A DNA stretch of 64,000 nucleotides from Escherichia phage OSYSP. Under the pieces are notes generated by a model that was not told the origin of the DNA, made no database searches, and was given only the letters and a program-made list of their open reading frames with translations. Location of the stretch: the sequence record MF402939, one strand, 5' to 3'. Positions 3,834 to 56,901 of this stretch are shown piece after piece. The position numbers and the translations under genes were made by a program. The stretch's first letter is position 1, and every line of letters starts with the position of its first letter.

Positions 3834-3900
3834 AAAATTTATTTGCTTTCAGGAAAATTTTTCTGTATAATAGATTCATAAATTTGAGAGAGGAGTTTAA
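3830..3900 (+). promoter_or_regulatory. T5 P-N25-like strong early promoter (TTGCTT -35, TATAAT -10, ATAAATTTGAGAGAGGAG leader)
   Basis: Sequence TTTATTTGCTTTCAGGAAAATTTTTCTGTATAATAGATTCATAAATTTGAGAGAGGAGTT matches the classical T5 N25 promoter as I recall it. Confidence 0.8.
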
Positions 3901-11359: not shown

Positions 11360-13927
11360 TTGAAAATCGCAGTAGTTGATAAAGCTCTAAATAACACTCG
11401 TTACGATAAACATTTCCAGCTATACGGCGAGGAAGTTGATGTATTCCATATGTGTAACGAGAAGTTGTCCGGTCGTTTGCTCAAAAAGCATATTACTATC
11501 GGGACTCCGGAAAACCCATTTGACCCGAATGATTATGATTTTGTTATACTGGTAGGTGCCGAACCTTTTCTGTACTTTGCAGGTAAGAAAGGTATTGGTG
11601 ATTATACCGGTAAACGTGTAGAGTATAATGGATATGCTAACTGGATTGCTAGTATCAGCCCAGCCCAGTTACACTTTAAACCTGAAATGAAACCAGTTTT
11701 TGATGCAACAGTAGAGAATATCCACGATATTATCAATGGTCGTGAGAAGATTGCAAAAGCTGGTGATTACCGTCCTATTACTGACCCTGACGAGGCAGAA
11801 GAATATATCAAGATGGTGTATAATATGGTTATCGGACCTGTCGCATTCGACTCCGAAACCTCAGCACTATACTGTCGAGATGGTTATCTGCTTGGTGTTT
11901 CTATATCTCACCAAGAGTATCAGGGTGTATATATTGATTCTGATTGTCTCACAGAGGTTGCAGTATATTATCTCCAGAAAATTCTAGATAGTGAAAACCA
12001 CACTATTGTTTTTCACAACTTGAAGTTTGATATGCACTTTTATAAGTACCATCTGGGACTTACTTTTGATAAAGCACATAAAGAACGCAGGCTCCATGAT
12101 ACCATGTTGCAGCACTATGTTCTAGATGAACGTCGTGGTACTCATGGCTTGAAATCTCTAGCAATGAAGTATACCGATATGGGTGACTATGACTTCGAAC
12201 TAGATAAGTTCAAAGATGATTACTGCAAAGCACATAAAATCAAGAAAGAAGATTTCACCTATGATTTAATTCCATTTGATATTATGTGGCCGTATGCTGC
12301 GAAAGATACAGATGCTACTATACGTTTGCACAACTTCTTTTTACCAAAAATTGAGAAGAATGAAAAACTTTGCAGTCTGTACTATGATGTTTTGATGCCT
12401 GGTTGCGTATTCTTGCAACGTGTTGAGGATCGTGGAGTACCTATCTCTATTGATCGTTTGAAAGAAGCTCAGTATCAATTGACCCATAATTTGAATAAAG
12501 CCCGTGAGAAACTGTACACTTATCCAGAAGTTAAACAGCTAGAACAAGGTCAGAATGAAGCATTTAACCCGAACTCTGTTAAGCAACTTCGTGTTCTTCT
12601 GTTCGATTATGTTGGTTTGACTCCAACTGGTAAGTTAACAGATACGGGTGCAGATTCTACAAACGCAGAAGCTCTGAATGAGTTGGCAACCCAGCATCCT
12701 ATTGCTAAAACTCTTCTAGAGATTCGTAAGCTGACTAAGCTGATCTCTACTTATGTTGAGAAGATTCTACTGAGTATTGATGCAGATGGTTGCATTCGTA
12801 CTGGTTTCCATGAACATATGACTACTTCTGGTCGTCTGAGTTCTTCTGGTAAACTGAACCTGCAACAGCTACCTCGTGATGAATCTATTATTAAGGGTTG
12901 TGTAGTTGCACCACCTGGATACCGTGTAATCGCGTGGGACTTAACAACTGCGGAAGTTTACTATGCTGCTGTTCTATCTGGTGATAGAAATATGCAACAA
13001 GTATTTATCAACATGAGAAATGAACCCGATAAATACCCTGACTTCCACTCTAACATCGCCCACATGGTATTTAAATTGCAATGTGAACCTCGTGATGTTA
13101 AGAAGCTGTTCCCAGCTCTACGTCAGGCAGCTAAGGCAATTACCTTTGGTATTTTGTATGGTTCTGGCCCGGCTAAAGTAGCACATTCTGTTAACGAAGC
13201 ATTGCTAGAGCAAGCAGCCAAAACTGGTGAACCGTTTGTTGAATGTACTGTTGCAGATGCTAAAGAGTACATTGAGACTTACTTTAGTCAATTCCCACAG
13301 CTTAAGCGTTGGATTGATAAGTGCCACGATCAGATCAAGAATCATGGGTTTATCTATAGTCACTTTGGTCGTAAACGTCGTCTGCATAATATCCATTCCG
13401 AAGACCGTGGCGTTCAGGGTGAAGAAATTCGTTCTGGATTTAACGCAATCATTCAGTCTGCTTCTTCTGATAGTCTCCTTTTAGGTGCTGTAGATGCAGA
13501 TAATGAGATCATTTCTCTTGGCTTAGAACAAGAGATGAAGATTGTTATGCTGGTTCATGACTCCGTAGTTGCTATTGTTCGCGAGGATTTGATCGACCAG
13601 TACAATGAAATCCTGATTCGTAATATTCAGAAAGACCGTGGTATCAGTATTCCTGGCTGTCCTATTGGTATTGATTCAGATTCTGAAGCTGGAGGTTCTC
13701 GTGACTATTCTTGTGGTAAGATGAAGAAACAGCATCCATCAATTGCTTGTATTGATGATGACGAATATACTCGTTACGTTAAAGAAATGCTACTTGATGC
13801 AGATTTCGAGTATAAGAAATTAGCTGCAATGGATAAAGAACATCCAGACCACAGCAAGTACAAGGATGATAAGTTTATTGCTGTATGTAAAGATCTGGAT
13901 AACGTGAAAAGGATTCTCGGTGCTTAA
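11360..13927 (+). CDS. Family A DNA polymerase with 3'-5' exonuclease domain (855 aa, TTG start)
   Basis: Exo motif FDSETS, pol motif A (DLTTAE), motif B (KAITFGILYGSG), motif C (VHDS); length matches the T5 polymerase. Confidence 0.95.
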   Translation: MKIAVVDKALNNTRYDKHFQLYGEEVDVFHMCNEKLSGRLLKKHITIGTPENPFDPNDYDFVILVGAEPFLYFAGKKGIGDYTGKRVEYNGYANWIASISPAQLHFKPEMKPVFDATVENIHDIINGREKIAKAGDYRPITDPDEAEEYIKMVYNMVIGPVAFDSETSALYCRDGYLLGVSISHQEYQGVYIDSDCLTEVAVYYLQKILDSENHTIVFHNLKFDMHFYKYHLGLTFDKAHKERRLHDTMLQHYVLDERRGTHGLKSLAMKYTDMGDYDFELDKFKDDYCKAHKIKKEDFTYDLIPFDIMWPYAAKDTDATIRLHNFFLPKIEKNEKLCSLYYDVLMPGCVFLQRVEDRGVPISIDRLKEAQYQLTHNLNKAREKLYTYPEVKQLEQGQNEAFNPNSVKQLRVLLFDYVGLTPTGKLTDTGADSTNAEALNELATQHPIAKTLLEIRKLTKLISTYVEKILLSIDADGCIRTGFHEHMTTSGRLSSSGKLNLQQLPRDESIIKGCVVAPPGYRVIAWDLTTAEVYYAAVLSGDRNMQQVFINMRNEPDKYPDFHSNIAHMVFKLQCEPRDVKKLFPALRQAAKAITFGILYGSGPAKVAHSVNEALLEQAAKTGEPFVECTVADAKEYIETYFSQFPQLKRWIDKCHDQIKNHGFIYSHFGRKRRLHNIHSEDRGVQGEEIRSGFNAIIQSASSDSLLLGAVDADNEIISLGLEQEMKIVMLVHDSVVAIVREDLIDQYNEILIRNIQKDRGISIPGCPIGIDSDSEAGGSRDYSCGKMKKQHPSIACIDDDEYTRYVKEMLLDADFEYKKLAAMDKEHPDHSKYKDDKFIAVCKDLDNVKRILGA

Positions 13928-21953: not shown

Positions 21954-24863
21954 TTATGAGTTATCTGGCTTAATGAGCTCACTCACAAGTTTTTTCAGTT
22001 CGGTTAATTCTTGCTCAAGTTTGTTAACTTTATCAGCTTGATAACGAAATGCACAAGCTAAATCCGCCATAATTACGTTATTATCAAGAGCTAATGTATC
22101 GTCCGCTTTATCAACAACAATTTGACGGTCTACATATTCTTCACCTTCTTCATTAACACCTATAACATCTGCAAAAATATCCCCGCCAGGAATTAATTTT
22201 ACATATTCCGGGTCTATTTTTAGTAGGTCTTGGGCTATTAAACCAAATCGCTGGATGTTGCTTCCATTGTATTTAAACATTGTAGGCAGCCACTGCATAA
22301 CGCGATCATAGCTTTCTTTTCCATCTGTATAAATTATATCATGCTTTAAATCTCTGTCAGAGTTGGCGGCCTTTTGAAAAATGAAATTTCCACTTGATGA
22401 CCATGTAGTTATATCGTTTGATGCTGGCTGAAACTGGAAGTTACAGAAAAAATTGCCATCACCACGAAGCCTTAACGAGCAAAAAGGCCAAGCATTATTT
22501 CCCTGTGGGATAAGACCCCAAGTTGCACGAATTGGATAACCACCAGTTGATTGTGTACCCCATGAAAGTCCAGGCGCCCATCCACCATCATTGTTAGGAA
22601 TAATCTCGCCCCAAACAAGAGCATTACCCCAATAGTTAGGATCATCCCAGCCCATTTGTTGGGTTTTGCCAGTGTATTGGGCGGAATGAGTTCTGCCGTC
22701 AGGGTAAAACTTGTGCATATAGGCCTGTATCCCTGCTTGATACAATTCTATTCCAAAAGATTCAATGTGTGTGTCGCCTCTTCTGATTAAACCAGCGATA
22801 GCGTAATCGTCATACCAATTGTAACGACTTACACCAGTCCATGTGTTTATGGGTGGATTCATGGTTGAAAATAGTTGTGACGCATTGCGTTCATTCCCGT
22901 CTGCATAAATACCAGCCCCCGGAGCTAATGAGATTGATTTTGCTCCTGAAAAAGTACCATTTTCATTAAATTGATAATAGTGAAACAAGTTATTATGAAA
23001 CACACCTATTGTATGTTTTCCTACGCCTACTTGAGTTTCGAAATAAGACTGAGAAGAACCAATATCCTCGCCTTGTGTGTTCTTTAATTTTGAATGGTAT
23101 ATACCTGCGTTTGCAGTATTTGCATTTTCCGTTTCATTTTCAACATTAAGGCTTAGAAATTTTGGTGCATGTTTTTCGCCAAGTCCTATATTGTTTCTAA
23201 TACCATTCGCATCCTTAGCACCCGTACCACCAAATTGAATACCTAGTGGTAGCCATTGATTGGTTGTAGCATCATAAACGCCCCAATGATCCCCACCATC
23301 TGGAATGGTTAGATACTTGTTTTTATTTGGGGAATATAAAACTGTTTCACCAGAAGTCTGAAACAGCCTATCAACTCCTAAATTATATCTAGCACCTTCA
23401 AGTGTATCCGCTCCAGTACCACCAGCAATAATTGATAATGGAAGAGATTCCCATGAGATACCATCACCATTTATGTTTTTCTGGAGTACAATAAGCCCAT
23501 CATCTCGCATAACAAATCTATATAATCTATTATGCGAGTATAAAAAAGTATGAACCCCATCCTGCACAAGTGAGTCTATAAGGAGCGTCTGACGAGAAGC
23601 ATTAATATCCGACAGATCTGAAAGATTATTTTCTTTTAGTAACGATTTACCAATAATACCTTCAGCTTTTCCAGCAGCCACTTCTGCACGTCCAGCGTCG
23701 GTAGATGCGCTTTGTGCGCTACTAGCAGCATTACTAGCTTGTTGCCCGGCCTCAACAGCACTGTTACCCGCTTGTGTAGCGGAAATAGCAGCGGCGTCTT
23801 TTAGCACGGTAGTTTCGGACACAGCGGCATCCTTAATTGCTTGCGTCTCGCTTACTGCACTATCCTTAATAGTCTGTGTGTCAGACTTTAATTTTTCAAC
23901 ATCTGCTTTTAAAGCTGTTGTTTCACCTACAGCGGCATCCTTAATTGCTTGCGTCTCGCTTACTGCACTATCCTTAATAGTCTGTGTGTCAGACTTTAAT
24001 TTTTCAACATCTGCTTTTAAAGCTGTTGTTTCACCTACAGCGCTATCTTTAATTAGTTGAGTATCTGATTTTAGTTGCTCAACATCTGATTTTAAGCCTT
24101 GAATAGTGGTTACTGACTGACTAGCTGAGGTTGCAGAACTAGCTGCGTTAGTCTCACTATCTTTGGCTTTAGTCTCACTAGTTTTAGCATTTGTTTCACT
24201 AGTTTTAGCATTTGTTTCAGAGGTTTTTGCAGCAGACGCTGATGTAGCAGCTTGTGTAGAGAATGTTTCCGCCTCATTCCTAAAACCACTGGAATCCGCA
24301 GCGGAAGCGGCAGCATTAGTCTCACTGATTTTTGCTTTATCTTCACTAATTTTTGCAACAGCAGCAGATGCAGCAGCATTAGTCTCACTGATTTTTGCTT
24401 TATCTTCACTAGCCTTTGCATTAATTTCGCTAGTTTTAGCTTTATCTTCACTAGCCTTTGCATTAATTTCGCTAGTTTTAGCTTTATCTTCACTAGTCTT
24501 TGCATTAGTTTCGGATATTTTAGCTGCTGCAGCGGATTCTGCAGACTTATTGGCTGACGTTGCGGACTGAGTAGCAGAAGTAGCTGATTGGGTAGCCGAT
24601 GCTTCAGAAGCTTCCGCGGAAATCGCAGCTTCCTGTTCAGAATTCTTAGCATTAAGCTCTGAAGTCTTAGCAGCTATTTCAGAATCTTTTGCAGCCGCAG
24701 CAGATTTAGCAGTGGCCTCTATAGAAGATACTAACTCATTAGCAGTAATAGAGCTAATAGAATTTCCAAGAGTTACTGTGTATCTAGGAAATTTACTAGC
24801 AGTAGCTTTAGTATCATCAATATTTAATATTTGTTGTACAATAATCTTAGTAGTTATTGCCAT
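21954..24863 (-). CDS. L-shaped tail fibre (pb1-like) with Ala/Ser/Thr/Lys-rich repetitive shaft and C-terminal intramolecular chaperone (peptidase S74-like)
   Basis: Tandem repeats in the translation; C-terminal SDRDLKHD ... GLIAQDL motif; position after dut as in T5-like phages. Confidence 0.8.
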   Translation of the reverse strand: MAITTKIIVQQILNIDDTKATASKFPRYTVTLGNSISSITANELVSSIEATAKSAAAAKDSEIAAKTSELNAKNSEQEAAISAEASEASATQSATSATQSATSANKSAESAAAAKISETNAKTSEDKAKTSEINAKASEDKAKTSEINAKASEDKAKISETNAAASAAVAKISEDKAKISETNAAASAADSSGFRNEAETFSTQAATSASAAKTSETNAKTSETNAKTSETKAKDSETNAASSATSASQSVTTIQGLKSDVEQLKSDTQLIKDSAVGETTALKADVEKLKSDTQTIKDSAVSETQAIKDAAVGETTALKADVEKLKSDTQTIKDSAVSETQAIKDAAVSETTVLKDAAAISATQAGNSAVEAGQQASNAASSAQSASTDAGRAEVAAGKAEGIIGKSLLKENNLSDLSDINASRQTLLIDSLVQDGVHTFLYSHNRLYRFVMRDDGLIVLQKNINGDGISWESLPLSIIAGGTGADTLEGARYNLGVDRLFQTSGETVLYSPNKNKYLTIPDGGDHWGVYDATTNQWLPLGIQFGGTGAKDANGIRNNIGLGEKHAPKFLSLNVENETENANTANAGIYHSKLKNTQGEDIGSSQSYFETQVGVGKHTIGVFHNNLFHYYQFNENGTFSGAKSISLAPGAGIYADGNERNASQLFSTMNPPINTWTGVSRYNWYDDYAIAGLIRRGDTHIESFGIELYQAGIQAYMHKFYPDGRTHSAQYTGKTQQMGWDDPNYWGNALVWGEIIPNNDGGWAPGLSWGTQSTGGYPIRATWGLIPQGNNAWPFCSLRLRGDGNFFCNFQFQPASNDITTWSSSGNFIFQKAANSDRDLKHDIIYTDGKESYDRVMQWLPTMFKYNGSNIQRFGLIAQDLLKIDPEYVKLIPGGDIFADVIGVNEEGEEYVDRQIVVDKADDTLALDNNVIMADLACAFRYQADKVNKLEQELTELKKLVSELIKPDNS
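23850..24560. repeat. Tandem direct DNA repeats inside the tail-fibre gene (roughly 40-60 bp units, several copies)
   Basis: Repeated blocks such as GCATTAGTCTCACTGATTTTTGCTTTATCTTCACTA and CTTTGCATTAATTTCGCTAGTTTTAGCTTTATCTTCACTAGC. Confidence 0.8.
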
Positions 24864-25291: not shown

Positions 25292-27364
25292 TTACCTTAT
25301 ATGGATATACCCACTATTTAGGTCTATCTTCATCTTGTAGTATGCCTCAGGATTTCCTGATAACGCAGCGTTCCTATCATAAATGATGTTAACACCGATC
25401 TGAGATAAGAAAGCATTTCCTGCTACAATTTTATCTGCCGTCACCGTCCCGTTAACAATCATGTTTCCGTGGAGAACCATTGCAGGGTTAACCCAACCAG
25501 ACCCGTTCCATTGCCTTGTAAATGCTGATTGTGGGGCATTACTGTTAAATTCAGTTAATACATCATATTTAACTGGAGGAGAACCGAAGTTACTTTGAAA
25601 GAAGGAATTAGCTTGTCCATCATCCCAACCACCTAAACCTGCTATACCTACAGAGTACATCCCAGGACCACGTTGTCCATCATGCCCTATAGTACCTTCA
25701 GTACCACTCCACTGAACCACATCTGACCAGCTAGTACCCTCTAATAACCTATTAGTAACTGGATCAAGTGTACCCGTAGTCGCATAGATATTTTGTGTCA
25801 TATCTGTACGGTTAGGTGGAGTTTTTGACCAACCAGGAGGTGGATAATCTTGTTCTAGTGGTTTAGCAGGTAGAGATGTTGCTAACTTATAAACAAATAC
25901 TGTCTGTTTACCTTGTAAACCAGTTTCAATATCTACGTCACCATTTGGTGTCCCAATTACTACACCACTAGAGATACGCAAGGTAGTACCATCATAACGT
26001 ATCCATTGTGTAGCGTTACCAATGTCTAATTTAGCTTTGGCAGAGGTATTATCCATACCCATCCAAATACCGGAGTTATTATCCCCCCAAGATTTACCTT
26101 GAGTGTAAATTGCTGGGTTATCCTTACCAGATAAGTTAGTCATAATAAAGTTCGCAGCATTAATATCTCTAGTAATTACTTTACCATCAACGTTAACAAC
26201 ACGGTTTATAGGGTCGAAAGAAATAGGTGCTTTTCCTTCTTCATCCAGTAGACCAATGTTAATAGCACCAGTAGCTGCGTCGATTAAGAATGTCTGTCTC
26301 CAGATTTCTCCATCTTTCATGCTACCCTTAATAAAGGCATAATTAACGTCAATACCTGTCTCATTGACAAAGCTATTGTCTAGAGGAGTATCTTCATTCA
26401 ATATAAATGTTACAGGAGCTGATTCTGTTATATCTTGCTTATTTGGTCCCCAGGCAATTGATGATACCTTAAAAGTATGCTCAACTTTCCATGGGAATGA
26501 TATAATCGTTGCAGCTCTAGCAGCCCCAACGTTTATCTTTTGAGCTTTATCCCAGCCAGTCTTAGCGTATTCTTCAGAGTTTATATAAGTAACCAGAAAT
26601 TCACGGACATTAGCACCCGCACCACGTTCCCAGTCCCACTCTATTCTGACATCATATCGTTCCTTACCATCTGCAATTCGTGCAGCTTTAAAGGCAATGT
26701 TAGTAGGTGCAGTAGGTGGTACAAAATTATAAGCTACAGTGAAAACGCTAGGATATTCATAATAACCAGATGAGTCAACTGTAACACCATCTGGCATCGT
26801 AACTTGACCAGATATTCTGATCTTATAGTCGCCAACGGGAACACCACCAAATTTGATAGTAGGTCCCAGCGCGCCTATATAGTATTTAACCCATTCACTA
26901 TCTTCTGATGCAGTACTTTTTAATTCAATAGTGCAGTAACTAGCTTCACCAGTAGTCTCTACAACAACTATTGGAGCACCAACACCAACGTCAACGGGTT
27001 CTGATTCAGATCTTGCTGCAGTAATTATTGGCTTTTCCTTTGTTCTAAAGTTAGTTTCATTAGAGAGGTTTATACCAATTTTTGCATTTAAAAGTTCTGA
27101 GTCGATAATTGAATCATAGAAAGCCCCCTGAACCTGGTAGGTGGTTGAGGGGGTTAAATTATTAATCATTACGAAGAAAGTATCTATACCGGTATAATCA
27201 CGTCTATCTATACTTTCTCCTATTTTTAACCAAAAAGATCTACCAATAACATCATAATCAGTATAAATGGAGTGCTGGACATAAGCCAAAGTATATCCAG
27301 TCATTATACTATTTAAGACCATTTTGGCTGGTGCATTATTTGAAATCATTAAATGGATGCCCAC
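25292..27364 (-). CDS. Tail tip / central fibre protein (pb4-like)
   Basis: Size (690 aa) and synteny. Confidence 0.6.
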   Translation of the reverse strand: MGIHLMISNNAPAKMVLNSIMTGYTLAYVQHSIYTDYDVIGRSFWLKIGESIDRRDYTGIDTFFVMINNLTPSTTYQVQGAFYDSIIDSELLNAKIGINLSNETNFRTKEKPIITAARSESEPVDVGVGAPIVVVETTGEASYCTIELKSTASEDSEWVKYYIGALGPTIKFGGVPVGDYKIRISGQVTMPDGVTVDSSGYYEYPSVFTVAYNFVPPTAPTNIAFKAARIADGKERYDVRIEWDWERGAGANVREFLVTYINSEEYAKTGWDKAQKINVGAARAATIISFPWKVEHTFKVSSIAWGPNKQDITESAPVTFILNEDTPLDNSFVNETGIDVNYAFIKGSMKDGEIWRQTFLIDAATGAINIGLLDEEGKAPISFDPINRVVNVDGKVITRDINAANFIMTNLSGKDNPAIYTQGKSWGDNNSGIWMGMDNTSAKAKLDIGNATQWIRYDGTTLRISSGVVIGTPNGDVDIETGLQGKQTVFVYKLATSLPAKPLEQDYPPPGWSKTPPNRTDMTQNIYATTGTLDPVTNRLLEGTSWSDVVQWSGTEGTIGHDGQRGPGMYSVGIAGLGGWDDGQANSFFQSNFGSPPVKYDVLTEFNSNAPQSAFTRQWNGSGWVNPAMVLHGNMIVNGTVTADKIVAGNAFLSQIGVNIIYDRNAALSGNPEAYYKMKIDLNSGYIHIR

Positions 27365-30198
27365 TCCACAGACTGTTCTCCATCATCCCCTTCTGCCCTA
27401 ATACGAAAATACAATTTTCTATTTATACCTAGAGCACCGCTGTTCTGGAGAGCAAAGTCTGCCTTATTATATGTTAATAAATAGTCATAAGTATACTGAT
27501 TTTCAATACGTACACTTCTTAACATCCTATTTTGTGAATCGTGTATTTCAAGGGTATAAAATATACTCTCTATTATATCTTCTTCAGGTATTCTATCCCA
27601 GGCTAGTTTCACATCTGGGCCAACAAACTCAGTTACATCTCCAGAAGCAGTATTAGTTACCCTAAAATTAGATACTACACTAAGGTTTTTAGCAGAGTTA
27701 AGTTCTATAGACAGAGTCACCGGGGAACTTCTTCTACCATTAATATCTACTGCCCTTATCTCAAATATAGCCAGACCTGCTGGTTCCCCAATTATTTCTT
27801 GGACCATACGTTCGTTAGGATTGGTCTCTAACTGTTGTATTATGTAAGGTTCGGCATGGCCTGAGTGCACAATAGAGTAGTAAACTACATTATTGGTTAG
27901 ACTCGGAAGCCAGGATAACTCACCATTTTTACCTATAGAGCCTACTAAACCGCCAGGAGTAGGAGTATATTTAAAGTCTCTAGGAGGAAGGACATTGTTA
28001 CTAATATCAGGAATATCATTACCGCTATTATCAACCTGCTCAGAGTTGATGAATACATCCTCTCCATACTCCTGTAAGGTAACATTTATCTTACCCTCTC
28101 TAGAGTTTTCAACCTCATCAACTAGGAAATACTTTTTGTTCCACCCGTAACGGTCATACGTGAATGCAATAGCATCATTGGGTTCAATCCCTATGAACTG
28201 GTATGGTAATGAGAAAGAAAGTGTTCTTGAGTATCTGGATTTCTTAAGTTCTCTATCCGCAAAACTTCTTGCAGTATAGTAGTTAGTAATATTAGCAAAA
28301 GATAGTTGTAATTTTTTATCTAGGTTCTTGTCCTGTTCCTTATACTTGGAATTATAGAATGTAATAGAATTAGTTTTCCAGCTAAGGGCGGGATCTACGA
28401 TAGATGCTTGAACTGAGTTGAATTTATTTCTACCAGTAGTATCTGATAGCTCCAAATCACCGTAAGTATCTAGAAAATTAATCTCTAAGGGAGTATTAGA
28501 GTATTTTTCTACAGTAACCCTATACTGACCAGATAAATTGTTAATAGCCCCACCATAGGACTCTAACAAACCTTGCACATTTTTAAATACTGATTCAGAT
28601 GTATCCAAAATAGTATTCATTTGTACTATTTGTCTATTTTCTGCTAGTGGATCAGTCCACCCAACGTATCTCCAATATGGCTGCCAAGATACCTGATAGG
28701 ATTCATCTATAATATCTAAAATAGCTGCCTCCTGTATTAATTGCTGAAGAGGGAACTGATCAATGGTAATATTAGCGCCATATCTATCAGAGGTTAAGTA
28801 ATCAAGTGTTTGCCAAATACCATTTAAACTAGTACTATTAGCAGTTACTCTACCATCAGAATGATAGACTTTTACTTTTTTACCTTGAATTTCAGCACTA
28901 ACTTCTGGAATCTCAGTCCTATTTTCATTAATAGTGAAGCGCACCACTGCGTATGCAGTATCTAGTAGCTTATATCTAGCATCCCAGTACTCCGGCCCAT
29001 TGCCATTCATATTCTGAAGGTAGAATCCACGTTCTTTAGCTATATCTACTAGTACTTCAGAGGCTGTTTGATCAGATTTTCCGTGATAAGTCCAAATCCT
29101 TATGTCACCATTTCCATCATTATACTTATACTCTTGACCATGGACGGATGGACTACTAGAAGAGGTTCCAGATGCTATCCTCTGCATTGTATCTCCTGCT
29201 ATTTTTTTAGTACCAAAGCAGGTTCTAGCGGAGCTATCATTAGCATCTACGCAGATCATAGGATTATCACCGAAGGAGAAATCAAGAAAACCATCAATCT
29301 CCCCCTCAGCAAAGGCGTATACGACATAAACTATGTTGGGATTGTGTAGTTCTGTATCAGCAAAAATAGGTATTCCAGGAATTTTTTGAACCCCATAAAC
29401 CACCGGTATGTATTTAGCAGCAAGGTTAAAATCTATATCCACTTCCTTAGTGACAGTTTCATAGTATTTTTTAAGGCTGTAGCTTCTAGATAAACCAAAT
29501 AATTTTTTCTTTGATTTTAGCTTGTATCTTTCTTCTTGAACCTGATATTTTGCTAGGATAGAGATACTTTTATTAGAGTGGAAGAAGCCGTAGTCTTCTT
29601 GATACTCTGGTCTTTTAGCACCATTAGATGGTACTAACTGTCCAGCTACAACTTCAAGCCCCCTATGGGAAGCGTCATCAGTATATCTACCATTAACTCT
29701 ATCAAAGTCATAGAATTGGTTAGAACAATTCCAGGTAATTGTAGAGGTTCCTACTCCAGAGGTACTAATGTTATCTTTAATACCCCCTCCAGTAATCCTC
29801 CCCCTAAAATATAGTAAAGGACCATTTGTATCTGGGTCTACTGGCAGAATAGAACCATCTTCAGTAATAATTGCTTGATGAATTGATACGGTTCTATCTA
29901 AGAAGGATACACCATTTTGTACTAGTTTTAGTACTTCATCCTGAGCTGTACCAGTAATAGTAAAAGATAGACTACCAATAGATAAATCTCTATTTTGTTT
30001 ATGTGAGCTAATAGACTTAACTTTACCCGCCTGGTATAAGATGCCATTATATAGTACATCCCTAAAATAATCAGTTAAATAAATAAAAGCAGTACTAGTA
30101 CCAGTAGAGCCAGGTAACTCTAGAGAAATTAGACTAGCAGTTTTTATTCTGCTATTATTTTTTAAGTAGTTTCTAGCACTATCTAGTATTTTTTTCAT
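27349..30198 (-). CDS. Baseplate hub / tail tip protein (pb3-like, 949 aa)
   Basis: Length and position match the T5-like baseplate hub. Confidence 0.65.
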   Translation of the reverse strand: MKKILDSARNYLKNNSRIKTASLISLELPGSTGTSTAFIYLTDYFRDVLYNGILYQAGKVKSISSHKQNRDLSIGSLSFTITGTAQDEVLKLVQNGVSFLDRTVSIHQAIITEDGSILPVDPDTNGPLLYFRGRITGGGIKDNISTSGVGTSTITWNCSNQFYDFDRVNGRYTDDASHRGLEVVAGQLVPSNGAKRPEYQEDYGFFHSNKSISILAKYQVQEERYKLKSKKKLFGLSRSYSLKKYYETVTKEVDIDFNLAAKYIPVVYGVQKIPGIPIFADTELHNPNIVYVVYAFAEGEIDGFLDFSFGDNPMICVDANDSSARTCFGTKKIAGDTMQRIASGTSSSSPSVHGQEYKYNDGNGDIRIWTYHGKSDQTASEVLVDIAKERGFYLQNMNGNGPEYWDARYKLLDTAYAVVRFTINENRTEIPEVSAEIQGKKVKVYHSDGRVTANSTSLNGIWQTLDYLTSDRYGANITIDQFPLQQLIQEAAILDIIDESYQVSWQPYWRYVGWTDPLAENRQIVQMNTILDTSESVFKNVQGLLESYGGAINNLSGQYRVTVEKYSNTPLEINFLDTYGDLELSDTTGRNKFNSVQASIVDPALSWKTNSITFYNSKYKEQDKNLDKKLQLSFANITNYYTARSFADRELKKSRYSRTLSFSLPYQFIGIEPNDAIAFTYDRYGWNKKYFLVDEVENSREGKINVTLQEYGEDVFINSEQVDNSGNDIPDISNNVLPPRDFKYTPTPGGLVGSIGKNGELSWLPSLTNNVVYYSIVHSGHAEPYIIQQLETNPNERMVQEIIGEPAGLAIFEIRAVDINGRRSSPVTLSIELNSAKNLSVVSNFRVTNTASGDVTEFVGPDVKLAWDRIPEEDIIESIFYTLEIHDSQNRMLRSVRIENQYTYDYLLTYNKADFALQNSGALGINRKLYFRIRAEGDDGEQSVEWASI

Positions 30199-38330: not shown

Positions 38331-38333
38331 TTA

Positions 38334-39613: not shown

Positions 39614-39625
39614 TTATTTTTCCCA

Positions 39626-39650: not shown

Positions 39651-39671
39651 TTATCGGCTGAAAAGCCTGTA

Positions 39672-43410: not shown

Positions 43411-43847
43411 TATAAGAACCTTGCGAATCCTGATTTTATTTCAGTCTTGACTTGTGTCTTTTCTTGAGGATTCTGTAATTTGTCTTTCTGCTTTTGAACC
43501 CATGCTTTCTGTTTATTAGCAGAAAATAATGGAGGTTCTTTCGTGTAAACCTTATGTAATAGTTGGTGATGGTGTACACAAAGGGTAACAGTGTCTTCTA
43601 CTAGCTCATGCCTATATCGATCATAGAATGCCGTCCTATTTGAAAGGACTGTTTCTTCGTCAGTGAAATCCAATTGGAGTTCTTTAGCAAATTTTTTAAC
43701 TAGTAGAGACACCGTATGGTAATGATGAAGCTCTAATTCTTCAGCACAACCGCAGATAGCACATTGAGAGTCTTTTTTATATTGACTTTTTATTCCGTCT
43801 CTCATAAGGGATATAGCATCGCGTTTATATTTTATATTGCTTGCCAT
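43410..43847 (-). CDS. HNH-type endonuclease / zinc-binding protein; start taken at the ATG preceded by GAGGAG
   Basis: CAICGC ... HHYH ... CVHHHQLLH motif pattern. Confidence 0.55.
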   Translation of the reverse strand: MASNIKYKRDAISLMRDGIKSQYKKDSQCAICGCAEELELHHYHTVSLLVKKFAKELQLDFTDEETVLSNRTAFYDRYRHELVEDTVTLCVHHHQLLHKVYTKEPPLFSANKQKAWVQKQKDKLQNPQEKTQVKTEIKSGFARFL

Positions 43848-43961
43848 AGTGTTCTCCTCAACTGTATGAATATAGTATACATAATCGTATCGAATTTGTA
43901 AAGGGGATTTTAAAATACAGGAATGGGATACCAACTGAGTAGTATCCCATCCTATACTTAT

Positions 43962-45278
43962 TTATTTACCACGGGAAATAGAGTAAATTCCATAGCGGAG
44001 CGCATCACAAAGGTGAGAGTTAGCATCATGACGTGGTTTTTCACGTGATAATTTCTCTTCACCTTCTTGGAAGTCCCACTTATAGTTCTGCAATGCATGA
44101 ATTAGGGAGGAACATGAGGCATCTACAATAATCTTGCCCTGCTGAAATAACGCTTGCAAACATGCTAGGCCATCTAGAACAGATTTTTTAGCTGGAGCTG
44201 ATGCAATTTCATGCTCATAAGCTAAGTCCTGGCGGAACTGAGCAGCGGCAGAGTCAACAAAAATACGATCAACTTTATAACGATCTATACAGTGCTGAAT
44301 ATAAGCAGCATGCTGAGCTGTAGTTTTCTCCACCTGCTGGTACTCTTCTAATACATAGTAAGTATCCGTATCGTAATGATATTTAATAGTAAGAACTGCT
44401 GTAGGATCACGATAACCAACGTCAATACCAAGCAACGTTTCGAATGCTTCATCATCTTTAAAGAAGTGGCGCATACCTTTGAGGTCTTTAACATGATCGA
44501 TAGCATTAAAAGTATCAAAGATCTGGCCTTCAAATACAGAGAAGTCAGCCTCGTATTCCTGGCGGAAGTAGTTTTTACTAACTGTACGACGTGCTTCCTC
44601 AATGTCATTCAAATCAGCACGTGGGTTATCACGATATGTACCATGAATAGATACCCAGTTAGGCAACGTATCATCAAATCCGTAGGCGTAAAACTCTTTA
44701 AACCAGTTACCCCCACGAGGGGTGGAAATAAATAGAGCCTTAGAATTAGGTTTATCTAGAGTAGGACGCAGCTGAACCCTGAAGGCATCACCACCCACAT
44801 CGGAAATTGCCGCCTCGTCAAAGATGATAAAATCATATGAACGTCCAACTGCGGAGTCAGCCTGAGCCGCGGAAGCTAGTTTAAATAGGGAACCATTTGC
44901 CAGTTCAATCTCTTTATCTTTAGCGTTTTCACGTTCGGTTTGTAGGCCGTACTTCTTAATAAGACCACGAATCTGAGACCACCCGATATTGGCCAGTGAG
45001 TAGTTAGGGGCAACTACTAGTACCTTCACATTAGGTTCCAGCAATTTTAGGAACCCAAGAGTATATGCGATGAAGGATTTACCTACACGGCGTGATACAC
45101 ACGCCGTTACAAAACGATGTCTAGGGTCCTCTAGAGCATTAATAATCGCTATTTGAGGGCCATTAGGTGTAATACCCTCTTGTGCTAGTATTCCCGAAAC
45201 AGGTAGACGGAAGAAACGTTTGTCTATTCCGAAATCAATAACATCTACTGTGTTAACGTAGGGTCTTGATACTTCCAT
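43962..45278 (-). CDS. Terminase large subunit (438 aa)
   Basis: Walker A-like RRVGKS near the N-terminus; size; position. Confidence 0.85.
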   Translation of the reverse strand: MEVSRPYVNTVDVIDFGIDKRFFRLPVSGILAQEGITPNGPQIAIINALEDPRHRFVTACVSRRVGKSFIAYTLGFLKLLEPNVKVLVVAPNYSLANIGWSQIRGLIKKYGLQTERENAKDKEIELANGSLFKLASAAQADSAVGRSYDFIIFDEAAISDVGGDAFRVQLRPTLDKPNSKALFISTPRGGNWFKEFYAYGFDDTLPNWVSIHGTYRDNPRADLNDIEEARRTVSKNYFRQEYEADFSVFEGQIFDTFNAIDHVKDLKGMRHFFKDDEAFETLLGIDVGYRDPTAVLTIKYHYDTDTYYVLEEYQQVEKTTAQHAAYIQHCIDRYKVDRIFVDSAAAQFRQDLAYEHEIASAPAKKSVLDGLACLQALFQQGKIIVDASCSSLIHALQNYKWDFQEGEEKLSREKPRHDANSHLCDALRYGIYSISRGK

Positions 45279-45760
45279 TACTTCTTACCTCCAGTAGCTA
45301 GGGAAGTAATTAAGTCCATGTAGTTTTGATCCCCAGCTCCAGCAATAATATTATTCTGGATGTTGGTCTGATTGGCTGGAGTACGGGCTGCTGCCTTCAC
45401 TTTCTCCAGTTCTACCATCATTTTCATTTCTTCCATCTTCATCTTGTGTGCCTTCCAGAGAATGTTCATAATATCCTGGTCAGAACCCATGCCGGTTTCT
45501 TCTAGTTCCTCCAGCTTACGCTTGATAACTTCATCCAGAACACCAAATAAACGATCCCTATTACGGAAACCACTCTCCATAAAAATATCATTTAAGTAGT
45601 TCTTAACTTCACTACGATTCATAATATCTCGGAAAGCAATTTCTGACATTCCAAGACTACGTGCGGCAGAAGGCACATCGCTGCCACACTGTAAATAAGC
45701 TTCAATCACATCCATCCCCTCAGGGGACATAAGATCTGGTACTAATACATCATTTGCCAT
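45278..45760 (-). CDS. Terminase small subunit (160 aa)
   Basis: Position immediately upstream of and coupled to the large subunit gene. Confidence 0.6.
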
Positions 45761-45770
45761 ATTTCCTCCT

Positions 45771-47558
45771 TTAGGTAAGGCGTTGAACTGTTACTCTTAA
45801 TCTCGGTAGGAAAATAGCTGCAGCCTCATCAGCGTGAATAATTACGCCCAATTCAGCATTACCATTTCCTAGATTTTTAATAGTATAAATATATCCGTTT
45901 CTTCTAAATGTTAACTCATCAGGTCTACTTGCCCAAGTTTGAGTATAGCTGTATGCAGTAGTGGAGTGATAAGGGACTAAGTATCCAGGAGGTAAGGTTA
46001 ATATTTGATGGAATATTCCATCACCTTCCGTGTAACTATGCTGTCTTCTTCCTTGTACTTGCCAAGCAACACCACCATATGTGCGTATAGCTCCTCCTGC
46101 GGTATTAATATTCCCCATGATAACTTCAGTAGTTAATATTACTGTTGCGTTAGCGTTAGGCAATCCTAATCCTATGGTGGCCAAAGCTCTATAGTAGTTA
46201 CCTGCTCCAGGATATGTTGGAGTTATATCATCGCCAACGTAAGTGCTAGCAACATTATTAGGAAATAGTCTTAAGGGTACAGTACTAGGACTCCACACAG
46301 CTCCATGCTCATTACCTATAGTGTTATTACTTGAGTTTACGTACCATTGCTTACCCGCTCCGAATTTGTAAATACTAATTTGAGACTTAGCCCCTCCATA
46401 ATCTACGGGAGACCATAAAGATCCATTACTAGATCCTACAATTTCACAGCGCGCAGTAGTATCCCCGAAGGCTCCAGTGTACGCTGCGTTATTTCCAATG
46501 TACTCCATATCTGGCCTATAGCCTAAGTTACCAAAAGCATTTTGGTTGATAAACTTATATCCAGTATTTGGTAAACTAACCCCTTTTATAGTAAAATTAG
46601 ATGGAGTTATAAGTATATCTGACCCAGTAAATGGATTACCGGATACGCCCATATTACCATTAGAGTACCTTAGATTAAGTACATACCAAATAACTTTGGT
46701 AGGTGTAATATTATAACCATCCTGCACATATACTTTCTTAGCGGCCTGTGCTGCTAGATTAGATGTTGAACCTTTACATATATAAACCTTATCAGGGTAA
46801 GTAGGAGATTGGTACAATAAGTTAACATTATCGGGTACTGTGCCTTTTTTACCTACGTAACTTCGTATATTAGAGTTACAAACGTAAAAACAATTATGCC
46901 CTCTATGGGCGGCCCCTATAGGAGCTTGCCAGTTAGGATGCCAGTAGTCAGCATTACCACCGTCTATAGGTACTGTAGACGCTCCCGCTGGAAATCCTGC
47001 TAAAGTCCATGCCCTACCTATAGCCTCACCAGCATATGCTCCTCCCGGCCTATATAAATTAAACCCGGAGGCTTGAGATATAGTACCTCCTGTACCTTGC
47101 CTAGCAATTGATTCTTCATGGCCTAAACCAGAGTTATAAATATAGGTGCCATGTGCTAAACTATTACCTGATGCAAAAGCTGACGTAAGACCTACTTCTG
47201 CACCTGCCCTACCAATAGGCGGATCTTCAAAAAATGTAGTAAATTGACCAACTTGAGATTGAGTACCATTAAGAAAAGCCCTATGAGTACCATTAATCTC
47301 AATAGCAGTTAGTATAACTCTACCTGGGTCATTGGATTTAATATTTATTATGTCAGAAGGCATCTGACATACAAAAAACCCATTTCCGGCATTACCTAGC
47401 CCAGCCTCGTAAGTACCATCAACTAGGACAAATGGCATATCACTATGAAAAATACTATTGGCATTTGGACTATAGTGACGATTAATGTCACCCCCAGATT
47501 CAGTATTTAAAGATAGTACGGTCTTACCATCGCTATACTTTCCAGCGAAAAAACCCAT
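45771..47558 (-). CDS. Receptor-binding protein (pb5/Oad-like, 595 aa)
   Basis: Position after terminase and divergent to the lipoprotein gene, as in T5-like phages; Gly/Asn/Tyr-rich. Confidence 0.65.
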
Positions 47559-47583
47559 ATAATCTCCTATTATAAAAATGTAT

Positions 47584-47625
47584 TTGCTTTTATCCCTCTA
47601 TTTTGCTATAATAGACTCATAAATT
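47584..47625 (+). promoter_or_regulatory. Strong early-type promoter for the lipoprotein gene
   Basis: TTGCTT - 17 bp - TATAAT followed by CATAAATTAGAAATGGAGAG leader. Confidence 0.65.
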
Positions 47626-47643
47626 AGAAATGGAGAGATAAAT

Positions 47644-47910
47644 ATGAAAAAGTTTGTGATTGCACTAGTTGCCGCAGTTATGTTGTCTGGTTGTGCACCT
47701 GCCCCCAAACCATTTTGTACGGGATTTGTAAAATCTTTTGGCGGTGCGGGAGAGGAGCATTACGGCCTCAAGGTTCAAAAAGTTCGTATTAAGGGAGATC
47801 GCTTTCCAGTAGTACAGCTCCGTACTAAGTTTGGGTGGTGGGATCTCAGTCAGTTTGACCTTAAATACGGTGATTGTAAATTTAAACTAGAGCAATCTAA
47901 CTACCTGTAA
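47644..47910 (+). CDS. llp: Lytic-conversion lipoprotein (Llp-like receptor-blocking lipoprotein, 88 aa)
   Basis: Signal peptide with lipobox LSGC; divergent from the receptor-binding protein gene. Confidence 0.75.
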   Translation: MKKFVIALVAAVMLSGCAPAPKPFCTGFVKSFGGAGEEHYGLKVQKVRIKGDRFPVVQLRTKFGWWDLSQFDLKYGDCKFKLEQSNYL

Positions 47911-48215: not shown

Positions 48216-48322
48216 TGGAATGGGTAATTATTGCGTTGCTAGGGATTGTGATTATTGGGCAATGTATTTTAGATAATCACTTAGCTAGAATTGAAACTTT
48301 ACTAACGGAGAAACGTAAATGA
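48215..48322 (+). CDS. Unannotated micro-ORF (about 35 aa, MEWVIIALLGIVIIGQCIL...), single transmembrane helix
   Basis: Hand translation; start overlaps the previous stop (TAATG) and its stop overlaps the next start (ATGA). Confidence 0.35.
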   Translation: MEWVIIALLGIVIIGQCILDNHLARIETLLTEKRK

Positions 48323-48513
48323 TGGAAGTAGTAGCTACACTAATAGTAATACTAGTCTGGGCAACTTTCATTGTTTCTTATAACGCGTATGTTCGCCTAA
48401 AAACTCTAGAGGCCCAGGTAAAGCAGCAACAATTTGCACTAGAAAAATTAGTAGAGCTTCAACGCTGTGATAGTACCCGTATTCTGCAAATTGAGAGGGA
48501 ATTAGATGTTTAG
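48319..48513 (+). CDS. Small membrane protein (transmembrane helix plus coiled coil)
   Basis: ORF track; hydrophobic N-terminus. Confidence 0.45.
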   Translation: MMEVVATLIVILVWATFIVSYNAYVRLKTLEAQVKQQQFALEKLVELQRCDSTRILQIERELDV

Positions 48514-48751
48514 TATTATAATTGCTTTTATTATCGGGATACTCACGGGAGTTTTCGGAATGACTGCGGCAATCAACAAGCATCGTAAATATATTGCGGA
48601 AGTATCGCGGGAGATTGCGGAAAGGGAGCGGAAGTTTGATGAGAAACGTGCGGAGTTCGAACGAGAGTGGTCGGACGGTTCTCGGGCGTCGCGGAAGAGA
48701 TTCCGTGAGTTCAGACCAGAATACAGGTTTGATGACCCTTCTATGCGCTAA
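48506..48751 (+). CDS. Small membrane protein (N-terminal transmembrane helix, charged Arg/Glu-rich tail)
   Basis: ORF track. Confidence 0.45.
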   Translation: MFSIIIAFIIGILTGVFGMTAAINKHRKYIAEVSREIAERERKFDEKRAEFEREWSDGSRASRKRFREFRPEYRFDDPSMR

Positions 48752-48854
48752 TTTGACTTTTGCCAATTTCTTTGGATTACGTACGCGTGGGTGTGTCCAG
48801 TGGCCCCCCAGATGAGAATGAGTCTCATTACCGCCTGGTACTTAGCAGGCTAAT

Positions 48855-48887
48855 AGTCCCGGCATGTTATCATTACACACCGGGACT
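48855..48887. other. Stem-loop (AGTCCCGG ... CCGGGACT) next to the ATGAGAATGAGTCTCAT and TTAGCAGGCTAA motifs
   Basis: Inverted repeat read from the sequence. Confidence 0.4.
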
Positions 48888-48903
48888 ATTTCAACTTTAA
48901 TTA

Positions 48904-49680
48904 CTACGCAACTTTTAATTTCTCAATATATTGTTGCGGGCTGCAACTATATTCTGCGCGTTCTTCTTCGGTCATACCTTCCCAACATAATTGCAGGCGG
49001 TCGGCTAGGAACTGATAATCATTATCATCCTCAAGAGATTCATCGATAAAGGTTTCACCTATCAATGTAACCCCAATCGATAGAATATCGTTAACGGCTT
49101 GTGCGTCCAGCGTTTTAAATCCGTATGATGCCGCCGCTGATAGCACGCCTTTATGATCATCAATCATCGTGAAATCAGCGTTCGGATATAATTGTTTAAA
49201 TAACTCAAAGTAATGGCTTTTATAAATAGCGTCTTTGCTGTGGTATATTTCGCTAACTTTATCAGCCTCAAAATATTTGTGTAGTGTATCGCGGGAAAAT
49301 ACACGGATATTACTATCCCCACGCCCTCGCAATCCTTGTTTACGCAAATAATAATAATCCGACTTGCTCATCAGTCGAGCGGTGCAAATAATGTTTAATG
49401 TATTTGCGTCATTCATGCACTGGCGCATATATGTAACAAGGGGCAATAAAGTATCTTGCATTATTAAATCATGTTTGCAGGCTTCATTTTTATACTTATT
49501 TAAATCTAAATTGCCCTCGCTATCAAAGCAAGGCGCTACACGATGGAAAGAATTAATGATAGTGCCGTCCAGATCCCAAATCATGACGCGGGAAATATGC
49601 GGGAAATTACGGGTAATATTCATTTTAACTTGATTCATTTTGTTACGTTCTCCATTAAAGGGATTTAGTTTATCCAGCAT
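48904..49680 (-). CDS. dmp: HAD-family 5'-deoxyribonucleotidase (Dmp-like); true start possibly at 49638
   Basis: HAD motif I (IWDLDGTI); position next to the A1-like gene. Confidence 0.6.
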   Translation of the reverse strand: MLDKLNPFNGERNKMNQVKMNITRNFPHISRVMIWDLDGTIINSFHRVAPCFDSEGNLDLNKYKNEACKHDLIMQDTLLPLVTYMRQCMNDANTLNIICTARLMSKSDYYYLRKQGLRGRGDSNIRVFSRDTLHKYFEADKVSEIYHSKDAIYKSHYFELFKQLYPNADFTMIDDHKGVLSAAASYGFKTLDAQAVNDILSIGVTLIGETFIDESLEDDNDYQFLADRLQLCWEGMTEEERAEYSCSPQQYIEKLKVA

Positions 49681-49718
49681 TGCCCGCTATTTATCAGCGG
49701 GCAATAATAAATCAACTA

Positions 49719-50111
49719 TTAAAGACCATAAGCCAACGCATCAGCGATAAAACTAATATCTTCACCTGATACGCTGGAACGAATCCCCGCACAAGTATAT
49801 ACTTTTGCGCTGATCAATTGATCATCGAGGCAAGCGGGGCAAGGCGCGACAACTGCAAAGGCTAGGCCGGATTTTACGGCGTCGATGATAATCGTTTCTT
49901 GTTTCACAGTATCAACATAAACACCTTTTGCTTTAATATGGCTGGTTAGTTTACCTTGCATATATGCAAAGGTAGTAACCTGCAAAGCGTCATTAAAATC
50001 TAATAGGTCATCAATAACGTGCCCCGCCTCGACGTGGTAACGTTCACCATTAGAATAAACCAGAACAATTGAGGACTGAGCGCGATCGAATGGAATATTT
50101 TGCTTTTTCAT
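49719..50111 (-). CDS. Hypothetical pre-early protein (130 aa)
   Basis: ORF track. Confidence 0.5.
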   Translation of the reverse strand: MKKQNIPFDRAQSSIVLVYSNGERYHVEAGHVIDDLLDFNDALQVTTFAYMQGKLTSHIKAKGVYVDTVKQETIIIDAVKSGLAFAVVAPCPACLDDQLISAKVYTCAGIRSSVSGEDISFIADALAYGL

Positions 50112-50149
50112 ATTTATAAAACTCCAATTAGTTTAATAATGGATTTAAT

Positions 50150-50407
50150 TTATTTGATAATAATCTGCATCTGGTACGGCGTTAATTCACCGTTTACGGG
50201 TAAATTATTATCGCTCAGCCACTCATAAAAAGCGTCATCGTCATCAAAAGGAACAATATCGTTATCACGGGAATCGACGGAAATAATACCATCCGTATTA
50301 GTTTTGGCGGCTAGGATAGGCCCGAAGCTGTAAACTTTATCAGATTCCATTTCATCCGGTGAAATGAATACTTTTTCGTCTAATGTTTTGGGAAGAGTAA
50401 CTTTCAT
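50150..50407 (-). CDS. Small strongly acidic protein (85 aa); DNA-mimic / anti-defence candidate
   Basis: Large excess of Asp/Glu over Lys/Arg, including a DDDD run. Confidence 0.45.
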   Translation of the reverse strand: MKVTLPKTLDEKVFISPDEMESDKVYSFGPILAAKTNTDGIISVDSRDNDIVPFDDDDAFYEWLSDNNLPVNGELTPYQMQIIIK

Positions 50408-50462
50408 TTAATTTAGCTCCTATAATAGCGGCTATATTTCAAGCCGCTAGGGTATTAATTAT

Positions 50463-52127: not shown

Positions 52128-52223
52128 ATTAATAAAACTCCATTAAAGGGATTAAAAACGTTTGTTATTGGCAAATATTGCCAAATATAACGCCTTGAAT
52201 AATAGGCGTTATAATTTGCAACA

Positions 52224-52421
52224 TTAATTTAAAGGCATAAGGCTAGAACTAACACCACAAGCAACGGCGGCAATAAAACAAATCAGACCTAAACGCTTTG
52301 CCAATTTAGACTTACGTTTAAAATAATATGAGTCTAAATCATTTTGAAAATAAGCGAATAATAACGAGGCCGCCATAATAAATAAGCCTAGAATGAGGGA
52401 TTCAGTAGGGTAAAAGATCAT
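52224..52421 (-). CDS. Small two-helix membrane protein (65 aa)
   Basis: ORF track; two hydrophobic segments. Confidence 0.4.
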   Translation of the reverse strand: MIFYPTESLILGLFIMAASLLFAYFQNDLDSYYFKRKSKLAKRLGLICFIAAVACGVSSSLMPLN

Positions 52422-52477
52422 TTTAAAACTCCAGTCAAAGGGAAATTATAGTGGGGAATATTCCCCACTAATTAAAT

Positions 52478-52885: not shown

Positions 52886-52983
52886 GGTAAAAACTCCTAT
52901 TAGTTTAATTTAAGGGATAAGATTAACATAGTGTTAATCATTATATTCCCCATATTTCAGAGGAATATAAAGTTAACACTAAA

Positions 52984-56899: not shown

Positions 56900-56901
56900 A
56901 A

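Follow-up and report, generated by a model that had tools for sequence, protein, structure and literature searches.

The BtuB-type hrs-llp cassette of phage BF23, which pairs a receptor-binding protein (RBP) with a lipoprotein (Llp), has been known since the 1990s-2000s. The BF23 hrs (oad)-llp module was reportedly described by Mondigler, Ayoub and Heller in 2006, and Kim and Ryu are said to have described BtuB as the receptor of SPC35 in 2011. In BF23, BtuB serves as the receptor, Hrs is able to stand in functionally for pb5, and Llp blocks the receptor (PMC10644984). BtuB is blocked by the cognate BF23 Llp; the Llp of DT57C lowers plating more than 100-fold for BF23 and for DT57C itself and leaves T5 unaffected, and resistant mutants carried lesions in btuB (PMC4728585). 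SPC35, EPS7, DT57C and BF23 all use BtuB (PMC8624392), and according to the BASEL work the RBPs of Markadamsvirinae can be sorted into three clusters, from which the receptor (BtuB, FepA or FhuA) is predicted, the vast majority belonging to the BtuB cluster (PMC8594841). The corresponding T5 proteins act on FhuA: T5 Llp, a lipidated periplasmic protein with a Cys11-Cys58 disulphide, binds the FhuA plug in a non-native conformation and causes EL7 and EL8 to fold over the site of pb5 (PMC9586334).

The locus analysed here lies in a stretch of 64,000 nucleotides from Escherichia phage OSYSP (MF402939), referred to below as the window. Its divergent gene pair is very probably a BF23/SPC35-type BtuB host-recognition module, made up of an RBP and a receptor-blocking Llp, of a T5-like Markadamsvirinae phage.

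Organization and relatives of the divergent gene pair

The positions of the pair, its control sequences and other genes named in the text are collected in Table 1. The gene order terL-terS-RBP, followed by the divergent llp, is the same in the window, BF23, SPC35, T5 and DT57C. Neither ORF of the pair is truncated or interrupted, each has a good Shine-Dalgarno site, and both are evidently real genes, with homologues in 536 (RBP) and 439 (Llp) phage records.

Table 1. Features of the receptor pair and other genes in the window
Feature	Position	Strand	Length	Basis or remark
RBP ORF	45771..47558	-	595 aa	ORF list; predicted receptor-binding tail-tip protein, pb5/Hrs family, BtuB-binding cluster
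Llp ORF	47644..47910	+	88-aa precursor	ORF list; predicted receptor-blocking superinfection-exclusion / lytic-conversion outer-membrane lipoprotein
Divergent intergenic control region	47559..47643	.	85 bp	Direct sequence reading
llp candidate promoter, T5 early type	47584..47614	+		Pattern match and alignment
RBP Shine-Dalgarno AGGAGA	47563-47568	-		Direct reading
llp Shine-Dalgarno GGAGAG	47632-47637			Direct reading; 6 nt before ATG
terS (terminase small subunit)	45278..45760	-	160 aa	99.4% identical to T5; left cassette border
terL	43962-45278		438-aa ORF	99.8% identical to T5 large terminase subunit
L-shaped lateral tail fibre	21954..24863	-	969 aa	
pb3	27349..30198		949 aa	
DNA polymerase	11360..13927		855 aa	

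The original prediction, made from the letters of the window, argued from protein lengths. The coordinates and lengths that it gave for the divergent pair are those found here, as are its window lengths for pb3, DNA polymerase and the tail fibre, and the T5 lengths given for comparison (640 aa for pb5 and 1396 aa for Ltf) are right; pb3 of T5 is likewise 949 aa long. The further statement that both members of the pair are shorter than their T5 counterparts applies to the RBP (595 versus 640 aa) but not to the lipoprotein, whose 88 aa exceed the 77 aa of T5 Llp. The length argument alone is insufficient, because the FepA-type phage H8 has an RBP of 637 aa, close to the 640 aa of T5 pb5.

Homologues of the 595-aa RBP were found by tblastn in 536 of the 50,697 phage records searched. 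Identity is at least 95% in 35 records, including SPC35, HdH2, NBSal003, NR01, Th1 and KPP2018, and 80-90% in about 200 records, BF23 among them. In pairwise comparisons, 588 of the 595 residues are identical to the SPC35 receptor-binding protein (99%) and 496 of the 595 to BF23 Hrs/Oad (83%), the 99 differences from the latter being dispersed along the protein; identity to the DT57C RBP is 65%, and to EPS7 it is about 80% over the C-terminal part, to which that comparison is confined. The EPS7 reference record contains no intact RBP ORF, the longest being of 296 aa. Homology to the pb5/Hrs family extends over the full length of the protein: PHROG 4815 ("receptor binding tail protein") matches residues 1-595 at E 8e-280, BLASTP aligns T5 pb5 end to end (E 2e-54; identity 30%, or 31% in a global alignment), and a sequence search of the PDB finds no relatives other than the T5 pb5 chains 8b14_B and 8a8c_B (E 6e-47). 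Pfam holds no family for the 595-aa RBP. The N- and C-termini are conserved with T5 pb5, and the N-terminal half is the most variable stretch across BtuB-type RBPs (see also PMC4728585).

The 88-aa lipoprotein starts MKKFVIALVAAVMLSGC and possesses a signal peptide of residues 1-16 with an LSGC lipobox. Cys17 is the predicted lipidated residue, with cleavage between MKKFVIALVAAVMLSG and C. The lipobox, already pointed out in the original prediction, is recognized by the Pfam model LPAM_1 at 23.9 bits (cut-off 20; E 5e-5), and a lipoprotein signal peptide of this kind, with its cysteine in the lipobox, is a property by which members of the Llp/Cor family are known. Homology points to the same family, as PHROG 1119 ("Cor superinfection exclusion protein") matches Llp at E 1.8e-26. 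Cysteines 17, 25 and 78 of the precursor parallel cysteines 16, 26 and 73 of T5 Llp, and Cys25 and Cys78 lie near the termini of the mature protein (mature positions 9 and 62, compared with 11 and 58 in T5); such a terminal cysteine pair is a further family property that the window Llp shares. The 88-aa sequence recurs unchanged (100% identity) in BF23 Llp and in the Llp of at least 74 records; identity is 99% to the Llps of both SPC35 (87 of 88 residues) and DT57C, and 66% to that of EPS7. Identity to T5 Llp ranges from 23% (global) to 30%, and one pairwise comparison, with E 1e-4, shows weak similarity. A sequence search of the PDB with Llp returned chance-level matches only (E >= 0.2).

The candidate llp promoter is composed of TTGCTT (47584-47589), a 17-nt spacer and the extended -10 element TGcTATAAT (47604-47612), followed by AG. 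The extended -10 element is perfect and the -35 hexamer matches at just three of six positions, which explains why a generic sigma-70 scan listed no promoter in 47559-47643; the generic scan listed no terminator after llp either. The pattern TTGCTN{16,18}TATAATAG occurs twice in the 64-kb window, compared with 0.04 matches expected. The second match, at 3843..3873, shares its full architecture with the llp site and falls in the stretch 3828-3897, which we take to be the strong T5 early promoter P_N25. When this stretch is aligned with the regions upstream of llp in the window, T5 and BF23, an A-rich block, TTGCTT, TATAATAG and ATAAATT are conserved. Divergent promoters are annotated at the equivalent intergenic place of BF23 and T5 in their sequence records, and on these grounds early and strong expression of llp is plausible.

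Exchange of the cassette relative to T5 and BF23

A region of about 9.8 kb around the pair was aligned with its equivalents in T5, BF23 and SPC35, and identity was calculated per 200-bp window. The flanks, which comprise the terminase, portal, dmp and A1 genes, show 92-98% DNA identity to all three phages. From about 45.77 to 48.0 kb, the match to T5 falls to approximately 30-45%, which is the level reached when unrelated sequences are forced into an alignment. The borders of this drop are sharp, at about 45.76 kb and at 48.0-48.1 kb; on the left, the T5 alignment improves from 38-62% to 86-97% DNA identity on passing from 45.9 to 45.6 kb. The module exchange relative to T5 that had been proposed from protein lengths is borne out by this fall from 92-98% to about 30-45%, and the whole cassette of about 45.77-48.0 kb is, by this comparison, a clean non-homologous replacement of oad-llp. 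High identity to T5 pb5 and Llp had been named beforehand as the observation that would speak against the proposal; over their full lengths, the two proteins are 30% and 23-30% identical to them.

A different picture emerges from the comparison with BF23, to which DNA identity is 97-98% over llp and its promoter and 70-87% inside the RBP gene, as against mostly 93-99% to SPC35 throughout the pair. SPC35 is without about 300 bp downstream of llp (48.29-48.59 kb of the window). Relative to BF23, there is, on the alignment, an extra recombination joint in the intergenic region, which connects an SPC35-type RBP allele to an llp whose product is identical to that of BF23. The same arrangement has been described for DT57C, in which hrs is separated from llp by a putative recombination point (PMC4728585, Golomidova et al.).

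The remainder of the virion is not uniformly T5-like. Head and terminase proteins are 98-99.8% identical to those of T5, and among the tail proteins identity is 69% for TMP, 77% for pb4 and 86% for pb3, the outliers being the RBP at 30% and the lateral tail fibre. The close match to T5 that had been noted for the rest of the tail therefore applies to protein lengths and only partly to sequence. In the 969-aa fibre, only residues 1-235 match T5 pb1, at 52%, whereas full-length matches are found in MET_P1_179_112 (95%) and VEc33 (93%), and residues ~255-965 are 67-71% identical to tail fibres of the ~50 kb phages atuna, slyngel and G29-2. The lateral tail fibre is a second host-range module, separate from the receptor pair and also unlike that of T5.

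Receptor assignment and proposed action of the pair

The RBP clusters by sequence with those of BtuB-dependent phages, apart from the FhuA and FepA types, and its 30% identity to T5 pb5 supports the expectation in the original prediction that the receptor would be other than FhuA. Two candidates had been offered there, BtuB and FepA. Identity to the RBPs of SPC35 (99%), BF23 (83%) and DT57C (65%) speaks for the first, and the low identity to the RBP of H8, a phage that depends on FepA (27.7% in tblastn, 29% in a global alignment), speaks against the second. Because the RBP groups with those of BtuB phages and the accompanying Llp is that with which BF23 blocks BtuB, the receptor can be narrowed to BtuB, an assignment that we infer from near-identity to characterized proteins of relatives.

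That the module might instead target FepA, as in H8 and S124, or FhuA, as in T5, is suggested by the earlier naming of FepA and by a coincidence in the literature: the RBP of vB_SenS_S124 is 98.5% identical to that of the window, and a phage called "S124" has been described as FepA-binding (PMC8594841). However, the FepA-binding S124 is NC_048013, whereas vB_SenS_S124 is OK108607, from chicken excrement in China, so that the two share merely a name. Since, in addition, the RBP shares just 28-29% of its residues with that of H8 and 30-31% with T5 pb5, and BF23 blocks BtuB with exactly the same Llp, a FepA or FhuA specificity is highly improbable. At the H8 locus, no Llp homologue was detected (best E 0.095).

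Some apparent exceptions among other phages were also considered. Cit2 had been reported to carry a T5-like RBP together with a BF23-type Llp, that is, a FhuA-type RBP mismatched with a BtuB-type Llp; this case was rejected, as its RBP shows 30.6% identity to T5 pb5 as against 67-73% to BtuB types. Where a figure legend ascribes lamB dependence to KurtStettler (Bas33), the name is a typographical error; the phage meant is Bas22, a small siphovirus of no relevance to this module. For SelmaRatti (Bas34), no receptor is stated explicitly in the BASEL main text, and this phage is not counted here among the experimental cases.

With BtuB as the probable receptor, infection may proceed as follows. 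The 595-aa protein, by homology and position, would sit at the tip of the straight central tail fibre and bind the outer-membrane vitamin B12 transporter BtuB irreversibly, committing the particle to DNA ejection. Inside the cell, llp would be transcribed divergently from its T5 early-type promoter, and the product, once exported and lipidated at Cys17, would be anchored in the outer membrane on its periplasmic side. Binding of Llp to BtuB would leave the transporter unable to bind the RBP, with the result that superinfecting BtuB-using phages would be excluded and progeny would not be lost on debris. Whereas gene anatomy, sequence identities and cassette borders are direct observations of this analysis, BtuB as the receptor and Llp-mediated exclusion are adopted from published work on near-identical proteins and probably apply here as well. 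The molecular details are extrapolated from the FhuA-pb5 and FhuA-Llp complexes, because the PDB search found only T5 pb5 for the RBP and nothing for Llp. By analogy with T5 Llp and FhuA, Llp may jam the plug of BtuB, with the extracellular loops folded inward. Such plug-jamming is a best guess, made because the window Llp keeps the lipobox cysteine and the cysteines at mature positions 9 and 62, and the analogy is drawn between proteins about 23-30% identical.

What is particular to the window is a set of four private RBP substitutions and a genome that is about 92% identical overall to the nearest records. The substitutions, A108T, W223C, G233S and A243D, are absent from SPC35, HdH2, OK108607, SelmaRatti and BF23; W223C is among the seven that separate the RBP from that of SPC35. 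They raise the question of whether a protein of the BtuB cluster could have shifted its specificity, toward the BtuB variant of another enterobacterial host or toward a different TonB-dependent transporter, in which case the BF23-type Llp would no longer fully match the RBP. The absence of all four from the five close relatives examined is in keeping with such a shift, as is the concentration of variability among BtuB-type RBPs in the N-terminal half. Furthermore, A108T stands beside the equivalent of the receptor-contact loop L1 of pb5, the tip of which is Gln115 in T5 (PMC9586334) and aligns to about residue 114 of the window RBP. However, RBPs as divergent as those of DT57C (65%) and BF23 (83%) keep both BtuB and exclusion by the same Llp; W223C could also be a sequencing error; and the codon changes in the RBP gene number 64 synonymous to 7 non-synonymous relative to SPC35 and 33 to 5 relative to HdH2, an excess that indicates purifying selection and a conserved function. 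Because RBPs at 65% identity still use BtuB, a shifted specificity is given only a small chance. If it were true, it would represent a natural and very recent retargeting to another receptor within the SPC35 allele, and it would partly uncouple the RBP from the BF23-type Llp.

The same codon changes, overwhelmingly synonymous relative to the relatives, bear on the proposal that the pair is a degenerate, non-functional remnant and that another tail protein recognizes the receptor. Nothing specific was found in favour of this proposal, and against it stand two full-length ORFs with good Shine-Dalgarno sites and a conserved llp promoter, so that it is scarcely credible. A functional BtuB module remains the preferred reading, and it is of use for annotation: the phage is predicted to need BtuB, and resistance would be expected through loss of btuB or shielding by O-antigen. 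Cross-exclusion with phages of the BF23, SPC35 and DT57C types is also predicted, and in cocktails the phage should therefore be combined with others that use different receptors. The block of BtuB by Llp is so far understood by analogy with FhuA only, a gap that is general and not specific to the window.

Comparison with described modules

Among the described systems, T5 oad (pb5)-llp shares with the window its site next to terS, the divergent arrangement and the promoter architecture, and also the families PHROG 4815 and PHROG 1119, the conserved RBP termini and the cysteine pattern of Llp. For this FhuA module, solved structures are available (8A8C, 8B14 and the FhuA-Llp complex). It differs in the proteins themselves, which are 30% (RBP) and 23-30% (Llp) identical and measure 640 and 77 aa as against 595 and 88 aa, in the receptor, FhuA as against the probable BtuB, and in the lack of DNA-level homology across the cassette.

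The rbp-llp pair of DT57C (Golomidova et al. 2016) has a BtuB-type RBP and an Llp that agrees with that of the window in all but one residue, and it provides a documented case of RBP allele exchange against a constant llp. The DT57C RBP is 586 aa long and 65% identical, and DT57C carries ltfA and ltfB, in contrast to the single gene for a 969-aa LTF in the window. Closer still in the RBP is SPC35 gp0143/gp0144 (HQ406778), with 588 of 595 RBP residues and 87 of 88 Llp residues identical in the same context; the SPC35-type RBP allele is also found in HdH2, NBSal003, NR01, Th1 and about 35 other records. SPC35 is distinguished from the window by the seven RBP substitutions and by an overall genome identity of about 92%.

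The BF23 hrs (oad)-llp module (OR083247), for which BtuB is the reported receptor, agrees with the window in gene order, in lengths of 595 and 88 aa and in the divergent promoter region, with Llp 100% identical and llp DNA 97-98% identical. It differs in an RBP that is only 83% identical and in the recombination joint between the two genes. BtuB-type modules of this kind are common, occurring in hundreds of deposited phages and in most sequenced T5-like phages. The feature in the window belongs to the pb5/Hrs and Llp/Cor families; it represents their BtuB-specific variant, of which BF23 provided the first description, and as such is already known.

The tail fibre, the distal tail and the receptor-binding protein

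Judged by its protein identities, the 969-aa L-shaped tail fibre is a chimera, in which residues 1-235 resemble T5 pb1 (52% identity) and residues ~255-965 are 67-71% identical to the fibres of atuna, slyngel and G29-2, which are siphoviruses with genomes of ~50 kb. A record under the name Aeromonas phage SD04 contains a protein with 86% identity to this second part. Over its whole length, the fibre is matched best by MET_P1_179_112 (95%) and VEc33 (93%). The fibre is a second host-range module, independent of the receptor pair, and its specificity is presumably for O-antigen.

Compared with T5, divergence is far greater in the distal tail proteins (69% identity for the tape measure, 70% for the 299-aa protein, 77% for pb4 and 86% for pb3) than in the head, portal and terminase proteins (98-99.8%). 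The attachment point of the receptor-binding protein (RBP) is pb4. The RBP itself carries four substitutions, A108T, W223C, G233S and A243D, none of which is found in SPC35, HdH2, OK108607, SelmaRatti or BF23. W223C (codon TGT) creates the fifth cysteine of the RBP, inside the conserved motif GHNWFYVC, and residue 108 lies ~6 residues before the position aligned to the tip of loop L1 of T5 pb5. These four substitutions could reflect either adaptation or sequencing error.

Positions of the features discussed, in window coordinates except for Cit2 and EPS7, which are numbered on their own loci or records
Feature	Position	Strand	Basis or context
P_N25-like promoter stretch TCATAAAAAATTTATTTGCTTTCAGGAAAATTTTTCTGTATAATAGATTCATAAATTTGAGAGAGGAGTT	3828-3897	+	match to T5 P_N25; upstream of ATG at 3904
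L-shaped tail fibre, 969 aa	21954-24863	-	chimera by protein identities
Distal tail proteins	25292-36416	-	protein identity to T5
Indel sites among relatives	43840-43866 and 48290-48589		comparison with T5, BF23 and SPC35
RBP substitutions at residues 108, 223, 233 and 243	within 45771-47558	-	comparison with five relatives
85-aa ORF	50150-50407	-	between A1 and 130-aa ORF; PHROG 8297
Region of Citrobacter phage Cit2 (OP745948.1; L010)	758-2867		alignment
terS-llp interval of EPS7 reference record (NC_010583; L007)	38139-40015		ORF check

Database records of related phages

Citrobacter phage Cit2 has been published as a user of FhuA on the basis of a stated 96.9% identity of its RBP to that of T5 (PMC12980165). 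In our alignment, the Cit2 RBP is 30.6% identical to T5 pb5 and 67-73% identical to BtuB-type RBPs, and its Llp, the receptor-blocking lipoprotein, is identical to that of BF23; taken together, these sequence comparisons make it more likely that Cit2 is a BtuB-type phage. In the EPS7 reference record, no RBP gene is annotated or intact in the terS-llp interval, where the longest ORF (296 aa) is equivalent to the C-terminal half of the RBP, and the gene has probably been broken by frameshift errors in the deposited sequence. BF23-type Llp also occurs at 100% identity in records named 'Listeria phage' or 'Campylobacter phage' (OR849067.1, OR846838.1 and others), the DNA of which is T5-like. Mislabelling of T5-like contigs, or contamination by them, is the probable explanation, and Listeria or Campylobacter hosts are not supported.

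An early promoter, the terminal repeat and differences among relatives

The plus-strand stretch upstream of the ATG is one that we take to be the T5 early promoter P_N25, used in expression vectors; a pattern search of the window and an alignment indicate that it shares a common architecture with the llp promoter. At 48850-64000, the window runs unbroken from llp across dmp and A1, both of which belong to the terminal repeat of T5 and BF23, and then continues for a further ~12 kb. Therefore, the source assembly probably either contains the terminal repeat collapsed to a single copy or is permuted.

The 85-aa ORF, which belongs to a family of unknown function, represents an accessory gene within the pre-early (first-step-transfer) region. 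It is found at 98.8% identity in phC11, VEc33, EC100 and ~80 more T5-like phages; T5, BF23 and SPC35 have no counterpart of the stretch that bears it. At the first indel site, terL and the nicking-endonuclease gene of T5 are separated by an additional endonuclease gene, T5.154; this additional gene is missing from the window, BF23 and SPC35. At the second, SPC35 lacks ~300 bp 3′ of llp containing small membrane-protein ORFs, whereas this segment is kept in the window, BF23 and T5.
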